A DNA stretch of 32,000 bases from Candidatus Harpocratesius repetitus. Its GTDB lineage: Archaea > Asgardarchaeota > Lokiarchaeia > Sigyniarchaeales > Promethearchaeaceae. The DNA is taken from NCBI GenBank assembly GCA_021498095.1, contig JAIZWK010000001.1, positions 3,840,001 to 3,872,000 of the forward strand. The letters are read 5' to 3'. Position 1 is the stretch's first letter; each line of letters opens with the position of its first letter. A program made the position numbers and the translations under genes. The notes below the pieces were generated by a model. It searched no databases and had not been told where the DNA came from. It saw nothing but the letters and a program-made list of their open reading frames with translations. Below are positions 29,181 to 32,000 of the stretch, one piece after another.

Positions 29181-29203
29181 ACCCTATTTACTCAGTGTTA
29201 ATC

Positions 29204-29497
29204 ATGGTTTGGATGACTCAACAACAAAAACAAGAACGAGACGATAAAATTCGTGAATTTATCGCTGAAGGTATGACGGTTGCTCAAATAGTTAAAGCTG
29301 TCGGGTGTTCAAATTCAACAGTTTTACGTTTAACTCCCAAAAAACATAATAAAAATATGAGCAATATTACTGATGAAAAATATAAAAAATTATTGCAAGG
29401 AATGTTTGATTTTTTTGTTAAAAATAGAGATAATTTAGACTTTGATGAAAAAGATATAGAACTAATAAAAAAAGTGCAGGAGGTTTTGAATCAATGA
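29204..29497 (+). CDS. Small HTH DNA-binding protein
   Basis: KIREFIAEGMTVAQIVKAVGCSNSTVLRL is a classic HTH. Confidence 0.75.
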   Translation: MVWMTQQQKQERDDKIREFIAEGMTVAQIVKAVGCSNSTVLRLTPKKHNKNMSNITDEKYKKLLQGMFDFFVKNRDNLDFDEKDIELIKKVQEVLNQ

Positions 29498-29884: not shown

Positions 29885-30493
29885 ATGAAATTAAAAATAA
29901 AAAACATAATAATAGGTTTAGTTATTTTCTTTTTTATATTTGGAATTGCATTATCTTATTATATCGTTGAAGATAATCTAAAAAATGCTTTATTTTTACT
30001 TCTTATAGAACTTTCTCTTGTTGTAATATCATTTTTGGTAAATATTGCATTTAATAATGGAATTAAAATAAAAAAACTAAAAAATATAAACGTTGAAGTC
30101 AAAATACATTGGGCTGATTTGAATATGAATAGACCAGTAAATAATTTTGAGCAAGGATTAGCTATAATTATTAAAAATATTGGAGAAACACCTGTAATCA
30201 TCTCGAACTGTGGAATTTCTGTCACAGGACAAAGAAATGAGATATATTTCAGAAATGTAAGTCCAATTAAATTACCATTTAGATTATTAGAAGGGGAAAT
30301 ACTTACTTTAATGGGGAGATTCGCAGATTTGAATAATTTTCTAAATCATAAAAAATTATTTAATGAAACCGTTCATGTAAAAGGATTTATTTTTACTGAT
30401 TTTGGGGAAAAAATCACTACTAGTAATTCCTTGGAATATAATGCTGAAGAAATTCAGAGAATGCATTTAAATGGTAGTGAAATAAACAATTAA
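29885..30493 (+). CDS. 2-TM membrane protein with C-terminal beta-sandwich (Ig-like) domain
   Basis: Two N-terminal hydrophobic helices, then IIIKNIGETPVIISNCGI...LPFRLLEGE...VKGFIFTD. Confidence 0.7.
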   Translation: MKLKIKNIIIGLVIFFFIFGIALSYYIVEDNLKNALFLLLIELSLVVISFLVNIAFNNGIKIKKLKNINVEVKIHWADLNMNRPVNNFEQGLAIIIKNIGETPVIISNCGISVTGQRNEIYFRNVSPIKLPFRLLEGEILTLMGRFADLNNFLNHKKLFNETVHVKGFIFTDFGEKITTSNSLEYNAEEIQRMHLNGSEINN

Positions 30494-30689
30494 AGATTTT
30501 TTTTCGTATTTCTGTGGGAATCGAACCAAAATCATGATTTCCGTGCATGATATAATCATCTTCAATGCGAATTTGCTCGTCATCATCCTCAATTTCTAAA
30601 ATCACATAAATATCAATGAGTTGGATAAATTTCTTCAGATCCGGGGATTTGATACATGAGAGATCAAGAGGGATCTTGACTTCTTTCAT
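30420..30689 (-). CDS. Possible small acidic hypothetical protein
   Basis: ATG at 30689 (MKEVKIPL), 74 nt downstream of the Schlafen gene. The 3' end overlaps the convergent gene by 74 nt. Confidence 0.35.
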   Translation of the reverse strand: MKEVKIPLDLSCIKSPDLKKFIQLIDIYVILEIEDDDEQIRIEDDYIMHGNHDFGSIPTEIRKKIFNCLFHYHLNAFSEFLQHYIPRNY

Positions 30690-30762
30690 GGAATGAAAAT
30701 AGGATGACAGTTCAAAAATGGGGATGTGATCGGGGAAGTATAATAAAAAAACAAATAGAATT

Positions 30763-31710
30763 TCATTTCCATTCTTGAAGTTCAATAAGATCTGAATAGA
30801 ACATCTCTTCATTTGACCTAAAATATGCTTTAACTTTTAGAGGAAATGTGTATCCATTTTCTTTCGAAAGTTCATCAAATTTTTTTCTAATAATATATGC
30901 TGAACAAGATTCTCCATCATTTAGTGTTTTTGGTAAATCCGTTCCCAATATTTTCTGTGGATTTTCCATTTCTAACATATTTTCAGTAAATCCATCATAA
31001 AATAATTTACCAGAAGTAATCCCTTTTGGCGGTGCGATTGTTATTTTAATTTTTTCATCTTCATGCATTATTCCATATTCTTGTATAATTATTGGTCTTG
31101 TGCTAATGTTTACTGCTTGTATTGAAATGATCGCTTCCTTAGTAATCGTTGGTGCTAATGTTACTGGATTCAATGAAACTTTCAATTTTTTTTTCTCAAC
31201 ACCACCTTTCGAAAGAATGATTTCTTCTATATCTTCAATTTTTAACCTACGTTTAGATCCGTCCATACGAACCCAAAATTCATAAGTTAGAAAATTAGGT
31301 GCTGATGGATTATCCCCTTGTCGAATTCCGTAAATTCCATTCTCTTTAGGTATTATTTTTATTGCTACAACATATTTTCCATTTGAAAGTGGAATTGGCT
31401 TAAATATTGGAAAGGGACTTAATATTGGATCAATTTTTTTTGGTAAAACATCATTCAATATCGTTTTTATCGCATCAACCTTAGTCTTTTCAATTCCAAT
31501 TACTTTTATCGGTGAATCTTGAATCCCAAAAAATAAAAATCCAACCAATGATCCATTTGCAAATGCAATAATATCACTTCTTAACTCATTTACATCGTTA
31601 TGAAAATCAATTTTATATTCAATTTGAAATGATTCAAAATTCATAGGATCAGCTTCAATTTTCATTAGTAATGCTTCATCTAATTCGTCAAAACTTGGAA
31701 TGGAAGACAT
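30763..31710 (-). CDS. Schlafen/AlbA_2 nuclease domain fused to C-terminal beta-sandwich (Ig-like) domain
   Basis: ESFQIEYK...DIIAFANG..GFLFFGIQD...IGI and YEFWVRMDGSKRRL are AlbA_2 motifs. The C-terminus reads IQAVNISTRPIIIQEYGI...LPKTLNDGE. Confidence 0.85.
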   Translation of the reverse strand: MSSIPSFDELDEALLMKIEADPMNFESFQIEYKIDFHNDVNELRSDIIAFANGSLVGFLFFGIQDSPIKVIGIEKTKVDAIKTILNDVLPKKIDPILSPFPIFKPIPLSNGKYVVAIKIIPKENGIYGIRQGDNPSAPNFLTYEFWVRMDGSKRRLKIEDIEEIILSKGGVEKKKLKVSLNPVTLAPTITKEAIISIQAVNISTRPIIIQEYGIMHEDEKIKITIAPPKGITSGKLFYDGFTENMLEMENPQKILGTDLPKTLNDGESCSAYIIRKKFDELSKENGYTFPLKVKAYFRSNEEMFYSDLIELQEWK

Positions 31711-32000
31711 GTATGATTGAATCAAATTAAATTTTTATTATTTATCACCTTATTAAATTTTTAAAATTTGATTTAGGACTATTTTTTGATTAATAATGAA
31801 ATTTAATCATTAATATTTCTTATTGAAGCTAAAGAGATATTACTCCGATTTAATGAAAAATTTAACAGATTAGAAAAAAACTTATTTATTAATTATTAAA
31901 AAAATAAATCCACAAAAACTCAAGTATAATTGAAGTTTACAAGAAAAGAAAAAGATGTTCAATATGAACAGAAATCTAATCTCCCTGATTCTCGCATAAT

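Follow-up and report, generated by a model that had tools for sequence, protein, structure and literature searches.

Do two neighbouring genes that share a domain also work together? The question is raised by gene A (P0001) and gene B (P0003), two convergent genes near the end of the 32,000-nucleotide stretch of Candidatus Harpocratesius repetitus DNA analysed here (positions 3840001–3872000 of the contig, within the single 4.36-Mb contig of the source genome, G000; this whole stretch is called the window below). A sequence-only reading had proposed that one viral-sensing module is coupled here to two effectors, a Schlafen nuclease in B and a membrane protein in A, and that the pair is a candidate two-part antiviral system. 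We have found that the two proteins do share a C-terminal domain (CTD), of immunoglobulin-like (Ig-like) fold. With a probability of roughly 55%, they are two separate single-gene modules that are neighbours in an integrated element's defence island, and each of them is built on a member of one Ig-like CTD family. The features of the two genes are as follows (TM, transmembrane; ORF, open reading frame; pLDDT, the per-residue confidence of the AlphaFold2 model).

29885–30493, plus strand: gene A (P0001, 202 amino acids), an ORF and a called protein on record, with a hairpin of two TM helices followed by the CTD β-sandwich; AlphaFold2 pLDDT 85.8, CTD profile E 1.6e-11.
29903–30052, plus strand: the two TM helices of A, residues about 7–28 and 34–56, from Kyte-Doolittle windows above 1.6; helices 2–26 and 30–57 in the model.
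30065–30454, plus strand: the CTD of A, residues about 62–190; hhalign probability 96.4%, E 1.4e-9; placed by HMMER at contig 3870065–3870448.
30763–31710, minus strand: gene B (P0003), a Schlafen/AlbA_2 nuclease followed by the CTD; AlphaFold2 pLDDT 89.3.
31243–31635, minus strand: the Schlafen AlbA_2 domain of B, PF04326 E 1.6e-13, with the catalytic motif, the AFAN box and D70 in 31516–31635.
30766–31218, minus strand: the CTD of B, residues 170–320, conserved in 8 Lokiarchaeial proteins and formed of strands in the model.

The form of B on record has 315 amino acids and starts from the ATG at 31710, while an in-frame TTG at 31725 gives 320 amino acids; the residue numbers of B used here refer to the 320-residue (TTG) form.

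Whether the C-termini of A and B are related cannot be read from the two sequences directly. They are about 18% identical, and pairwise BLASTP gives no significant similarity (E 0.44 over 46 residues), so relatives were gathered for profiles. Word-index searches with A and with the C-domain of B returned the queries themselves only; the relatives were obtained by searching whole genomes and by exhaustive profile searching. When 400 genomes of the phylum were searched in six frames with the C-terminal 151 residues of B, real homologues emerged, namely an orthologue of B in G137 (52% identity in the CTD, 66% over the whole protein), Schlafen-CTD proteins of about 300 amino acids in G176, G154, G190 and G182, and 450-amino-acid proteins in G241 and G206 that carry the same CTD behind a different N-terminal domain. 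A profile of the eight B-type CTDs, made without A, aligned with A over 103 columns (hhalign P 9e-5), and in the six-frame scan of the source genome with this small profile (31,507 ORFs) A came next after B and the decayed copy of B, at E 0.069. When the profile was enlarged to 57 CTD sequences, again without A, hhalign gave a probability of 96.4% and E 1.4e-9 over 117 columns (A residues 69–190), and HMMER found A in the whole genome at E 1.6e-11 and 45.5 bits. The six peptide strings that the sequence-only reading had quoted as aligning by eye are all present in the proteins, and the 57-sequence alignment reproduces its three motif pairs exactly.

The predicted structures agree with this relationship. 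From these alignments AlphaFold2 gave confident models of both proteins, and the order of elements is identical in the two CTDs, that is, six strands, one helix and two strands; in B, strands 4 and 5 are in addition separated by an insertion of about 25 residues, modelled with low confidence. In Foldseek searches both domains match the same solved β-sandwiches, among them ApaG (1xq4, 1xvs and 1tza), an archaeal pilin (8fk7) and AsaP1 (2x3b), which bears out the Ig-like fold that had been proposed for them. The CTD has no sequence relation to ApaG/DUF525, to the arrestin-like N-domain of Spo0M or to the transglutaminase/FN3-type sandwiches, and its scores against them are in the common-fold range. 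It is set apart by a further helix, lying between strands 6 and 7, together with the motifs N-x-G-x-R-P and L-P-x-x-L-x-D-G. A retains the family-conserved N98, P131, L134 and G137, while the Arg of the R-P motif, invariant in the eight B-type CTDs, is Thr in A. Overall, the C-termini of A and B are homologous domains of about 120–135 residues with the fold of an Ig-like β-sandwich.

The other half of B is equally clear. Its N-terminus is a Schlafen/AlbA_2 nuclease domain with an intact catalytic motif, as the earlier reading had stated: Pfam SLFN_AlbA_2 (PF04326) matches residues 31–161 at E 1.6e-13 and 51.7 bits (cut-off 25.3), and the motif E31-x4-E36-x-K38, the AFAN box at 54–57 and D70, which falls on the GVHD aspartate in an alignment with human SLFN5, are all present. 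An active Schlafen nuclease is marked by E-x4-(E/D)-x-K together with a SAFAN box and an acidic residue further downstream (PMC13056530; 10.64898/2026.05.29.728809). Foldseek with the model of this domain found the tRNase of SAMD9 (9o0d, E 1.2e-6) and SLFN5, SLFN11, SLFN13 and SLFN14 (E 1e-4 to 1e-3). B is thus like these eukaryotic proteins in its AlbA_2 fold, catalytic acidic triad, SAFAN-type box and GxxD aspartate, but it has one lobe, lacks the linker and helicase domains and is less than 21% identical to the eukaryotic Schlafens. From these residues B is predicted to be a tRNase.

A published class of bacterial proteins offers the closest comparison. In the pSlfn5/RorSlfn5 class (Nat Microbiol 2026), the Ig-like domain binds the tail-assembly chaperone of phage T5 and thereby activates cleavage of the tRNA anticodon arm by a hexameric enzyme (PMC13056530), and domain swaps have shown RorSlfn5's Ig-like domain to set the specificity (PMC13056530). 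The statement in the sequence-only reading that bacterial Schlafen-Ig proteins act in phage defence is therefore borne out by the literature. B resembles pSlfn5 in joining an N-terminal single-lobe Schlafen domain, bearing E-x4-(E/D)-x-K, to an Ig-like β-sandwich at the C-terminus, and in being a single-gene module of about 300–375 amino acids among defence genes. It differs in being Asgard archaeal and in that its CTD, of a family that the present analysis defines by sequence, occurs also with TM anchors and in HEPN, HNH-like and DUF4062 proteins. In SLFN-pAgo, moreover, single bacterial Schlafen lobes must pair, and dimerisation rebuilds the two-lobed nuclease (10.64898/2026.05.29.728809).

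Because of the match to the pSlfn5 architecture and the lobe pairing of SLFN-pAgo, we read B as a probable stand-alone, trigger-activated tRNase, an archaeal counterpart of the pSlfn5 class. By analogy, the CTD of B would most likely serve in sensing or assembly. Once a viral or mobile-element protein had bound to it, the nuclease would be licensed in an oligomer, the single AlbA_2 lobe would need a partner lobe for the active two-lobed architecture, and B would then cut tRNA, upon which translation would stop.

Does A belong to this module? The comparison with other genomes speaks against it. CTD matches occur in 15 of the 400 genomes, and adjacent copies only in the source genome. Within stretches of 14 kb that surround the CTD genes in G137, G176, G154, G190, G241, G206 and G182, no second CTD copy was found, and no second CTD gene stands beside the CTD gene in eight metagenomic contigs. 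A further comparison is that with the orthologous cassette of G137. Two further features of the window are needed for it:

30420–30689, minus strand: a small acidic ORF of 89 amino acids, recognised by BLASTP to its counterpart in G137.
29195–29497, plus strand: an HTH_7 gene (resolvase-type helix-turn-helix), Pfam HTH_7 E 9.7e-7.

The G137 cassette retains the HTH_7 gene (52% identity, E 8e-26) together with the small acidic ORF; in the place of A it has a Lys-rich ORF that is unrelated. The small acidic ORF, which lies on the same strand as B, 73 nucleotides 3' of its stop, and whose 3' end shares 74 nucleotides with that of A, has the same position in both genomes (BLASTP 38% identity, E 1e-16). 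It may be a lineage-specific partner or inhibitor of B, and is the sole conserved candidate partner, in two genomes. As a family-wide partner it was rejected, being present in G000 and G137 and not found at the other CTD loci.

In the maximum-likelihood tree, the CTD of B groups with Lokiarchaeial fusion proteins, including nuclease fusions, and that of A falls in the clade of small single-TM proteins, next to P0033 (99/87). Since the two domains lie in different deep clades and are so little identical, they are not copies of one module. A itself is an orphan: no convincing relative was found in the 400 Asgard genomes, the best per-genome hit (E 7e-5) being an unrelated response-regulator ORF. 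This orphan state, the lack of an A-like neighbour beside the B-type genes (seven genomes, eight contigs) and the different clades of the CTDs are the reasons why we favour separate modules.

The alternative is that A and B do form a two-part system, in which heterotypic contacts between their CTDs let A tether or hold B at the membrane, or in which RNA products of B activate A. Both genes are intact, adjacent and provided with a common domain, A has the gross architecture of the 2TM-beta effectors, and the pairing of a tRNA nuclease with such an effector has been proven in the Cas13b system (PMC13692257). In G176, too, the gene of an unrelated single-TM protein abuts the Schlafen-CTD gene. 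Nevertheless, the pairing of A with B is unique to the source genome, the G137 cassette lacks A, the genes are convergent rather than co-transcribed in an operon, and the CTDs come from different clades. We consider this alternative quite improbable; a shared sensing module with two effectors, or a conserved two-part system, is not supported. A heterocomplex prediction for full-length B with the CTD of A scored 0.00, without controls, and carries no weight either way. Of the candidate antiviral system, then, what stands is the Schlafen nuclease, the domain common to both proteins and the setting in a defence island, and the two-part link is unsupported.

The neighbour in G176, a gene for a 173-amino-acid single-TM protein (L008 278–796), ends at the start of the Schlafen-CTD gene, the two being arranged like an operon; here, for the second time, a Schlafen-CTD gene has an unrelated membrane protein beside it. 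As a member of the CTD family this protein was rejected (E 0.18).

What kind of protein is A? The statement that its copy of the domain is joined to two TM helices holds by both hydropathy and the AlphaFold2 model, which agree on two hydrophobic segments, about 7–28 and 34–56. The N-terminus is Lys-rich, the loop acidic and the stretch after the second helix again Lys-rich. With Lys-rich stretches on both sides of the hairpin, the positive-inside rule would place N- and C-termini inside, with the CTD cytoplasmic, in the same compartment as B.

Such an outline recalls the 2TM-beta effectors (Cap15/PF18153) of CBASS (cyclic-oligonucleotide-based antiphage signalling), Panoptes and Cas13b-2TM-beta, which likewise carry a small β-rich cytoplasmic domain behind two N-terminal TM helices; a probable tRNA nuclease as neighbour is a further likeness. 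In Cas13b-2TM-beta, a proven two-gene defence module of a tRNA nuclease and a two-TM β-barrel effector (PMC13692257), tRNA fragments with 2',3'-cyclic phosphates made by Cas13b activate the 2TM-beta effector (PMC13692257). One could accordingly imagine a Schlafen-driven signalling pair at our locus: infection would switch on B through its CTD, B would activate A by RNA products or by co-assembly of the CTDs, and A would permeabilise the membrane, giving an archaeal analogue of Cas13b-2TM-beta with a new receptor domain. We find this very improbable. Unlike the 2TM-beta effectors, A has no match to PF18153 (Cap15_CD_rec), even at E<=1, and its pairing with B is not conserved. None of 49 members of the CTD family matches PF18153 at E<=0.05, nor does any protein of the whole genome at E<=0.01, though 14 control genomes were also silent. 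The best solved-structure matches of A are Ig-like sandwiches, with Cap15 absent among the PDB matches listed. AFDB entries named S-2TMBeta match the shape of A weakly, at ranks 15 and 17, with template-modelling scores of 0.32–0.38; these scores count, if anything, for the two-part alternative. Against it, no CD-NTase (cGAS/DncV-like nucleotidyltransferase) or nucleotide cyclase was seen among the neighbours scanned.

A is rather to be seen as a member of an uncharacterised membrane-anchored branch of the CTD family, and this family proves to be much larger than the pair. When 1.84 billion representatives were searched exhaustively by HMMER with the eight-domain profile, 111 proteins (representative clusters) came out at E<=1e-3. 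In most of the members, which have about 150 amino acids, the CTD is preceded by one N-terminal TM helix with a conserved G-A-x-L-S-T stretch; a few (P0010 and P0017) have two TM helices as A does. In many other proteins the CTD is fused to SLFN_AlbA_2, and in P0015 (L079 6001–6933) to HEPN_Swt1 (E 1.2e-9). It is also found behind a DUF4062 domain (L069 1501–2847; DUF4062 E 1.8e-12, but the CTD match is weak), behind a DUF4145-like domain (weak match), behind an HNH_2-like domain (weak match) in P0066 (L072 828–1703) of a Promethearchaeota metagenome-assembled genome, beside an integrase and an EcoRV restriction-modification (RM) system, and in a 760-residue LRV/HEAT-repeat protein, P0020. Shape searches added bacterial clusters of SLFN_AlbA_2 proteins of about 300 amino acids and TIR_2 proteins with a similar β domain, as well as AFDB entries named HNH, DUF4062 and S-2TMBeta. 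No named family was found for the CTD among Pfam, NCBIfam, PADLOC and PDB sequences, and a single-protein scan for the family in GTDB genomes gave no match. One small domain placed on alternative nuclease or toxin domains or on membrane anchors is the pattern of regulatory or sensor modules in conflict systems.

This pattern has to be weighed against the possibility that the CTD is a general β-sandwich for assembly, scaffolding or small-ligand binding, so that A and most of the TM-CTD proteins would be ordinary membrane proteins and A would lie in the island by chance. The majority of the family, being single-pass proteins of about 150 amino acids with a conserved TM motif, occurs in mixed contexts: relatives in archaea and bacteria stand in housekeeping or unclear settings, beside a translation operon, major facilitator superfamily (MFS) transporters or resistance-nodulation-division (RND) efflux genes. 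No PADLOC model matches any member, and the structural matches are generic Ig-like sandwiches. On the other hand, repeated fusion to Schlafen, HEPN_Swt1, HNH-like and DUF4062 domains is typical of conflict-system modules, other members adjoin integrases and RM systems or lie on a virus-like contig, 8 of the 49 small TM-CTD proteins match phrog_17486, a phage family of no assigned function, and A itself lies among defence genes. Taken as a whole, this explanation appears unlikely to us, yet a role of the TM-CTD branch outside defence has to be taken seriously as an alternative.

Two loci of the family are worth recording here. The contig of P0104 carries many small unannotated genes on the same strand and has a virus-like look. 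A histone-deacetylase-like gene (L010 1765–2553 in G218; L077 1–807) adjoins a decayed CTD fragment in G218 and the two-TM CTD gene P0010 on a metagenomic contig; its presence at both points to a recurring locus for that CTD subgroup.

The genomic setting of A and B is a mobile element carrying a defence island, which reaches from about 10 kb to past the end of the window. Within the window the mobility genes are those of a primase-Toprim protein and a resolvase, and the defence genes are those of an Mrr-like nuclease and a DpnII fragment. The island extends about 12 kb past the window end, and all the mobility and defence genes listed fall within about 20 kb. Beyond the window lie the following (locus coordinates in L004):

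L004 4367–5184 (contig 3872367–3873184), plus strand: a second Schlafen-CTD gene, a decayed paralogue of B, divergent from B.
L004 7156–10365, minus strand: a type IIG RM enzyme (Eco57I/MmeI-like), E 1e-42.
L004 12575–13540, plus strand: an intact AbiTii-DpnII/MboI restriction endonuclease.
L004 14259–15989, plus strand: an OLD/AriA/PtuA-like ATPase-TOPRIM protein.

In the nuclease domain the decayed paralogue, which comes directly after the start of B, shares 49% identity with B. A frameshift (about L004 4906) breaks it where the two domains join, in-frame stops interrupt its CTD, and Met replaces the catalytic Lys (E-Y-M). A 156-amino-acid ORF close by (contig 3874548–3875018, L004 6548–7018) shows motifs that resemble the CTD by eye, L-P-F-N-L and a K-F-Q-I-W-I-E-N-N-H-G strand; it was rejected as a further CTD copy, with hhalign E 0.17 and 0.097 and only the last strand aligned.

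With decayed genes so near, A could itself be a decaying or non-functional remnant in a pseudogene-rich island. It is an orphan on a very long branch, its neighbours include the frameshifted Schlafen-CTD paralogue and the DpnII fragment, it has lost the Arg of the R-P motif to Thr, and the small conserved ORF on the opposite strand runs into its 3' end. However, its frame of 202 codons is uninterrupted, both TM helices are present, the AlphaFold2 model is confident, and all the nearly invariant family positions (N98, P131, L134 and G137) are kept. We therefore give the idea of a remnant little credence.

In G000 as in G137 (there at L005 542–862) the Schlafen cassette is flanked by the conserved HTH_7 gene, which suggests a shared mobile cassette. 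In G137 a gene divergent from the Schlafen orthologue (L005 2591–3463) shows weak matches to the PADLOC models PDC-S32 and TIR-effector and a weak one to AbiJ_NTD4, and fits a defence setting. A Ras-family GTPase gene, together with relatives named Promethearchaeota, is consistent with an Asgard archaeon as the source.

Several observations weigh against our view of A and B as separate modules, each concerned with defence. The branch of A is very long (2.77), and its exact placement in the tree is uncertain. Three CTD genes (A, B and the decayed paralogue of B) lie within 3.3 kb in this genome only, which is unusual, and a functional link between them is possible. The placement of B in the pSlfn5 class is one of architecture and fold. 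Finally, several of the small TM-CTD relatives stand in housekeeping or unclear settings, and any defence role for the branch of A is tentative. Under the separate-module reading, our best guess for A is that clustering driven by its CTD might perturb the membrane or recruit something there.

The co-occurrence of the pair that the sequence-only reading had looked to was found nowhere else (400 genomes, seven Asgard loci and eight metagenomic contigs), and the lack of support for a two-gene system lowers the interest of A and B as a pair. Each side of the locus has its own meaning. Schlafen nucleases are antiviral in animals and, as was shown in 2025–2026, in bacteria, and an intact Schlafen-Ig gene in an Asgard defence island extends this class to the archaeal relatives of eukaryotes. 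That is, B is an Asgard member of a known Schlafen-Ig kind, and the CTD family, with its membrane-anchored majority and its effector swaps, is worth describing. The more useful result is indeed this unnamed family of at least 111 representative clusters, found on RNases (Schlafen and HEPN_Swt1), on HNH-like and DUF4062 proteins and, most often, on a membrane anchor. If the CTD is truly a sensor, it would be a new portable recognition module, and its effector swaps could help to find the triggers in archaeal viruses.

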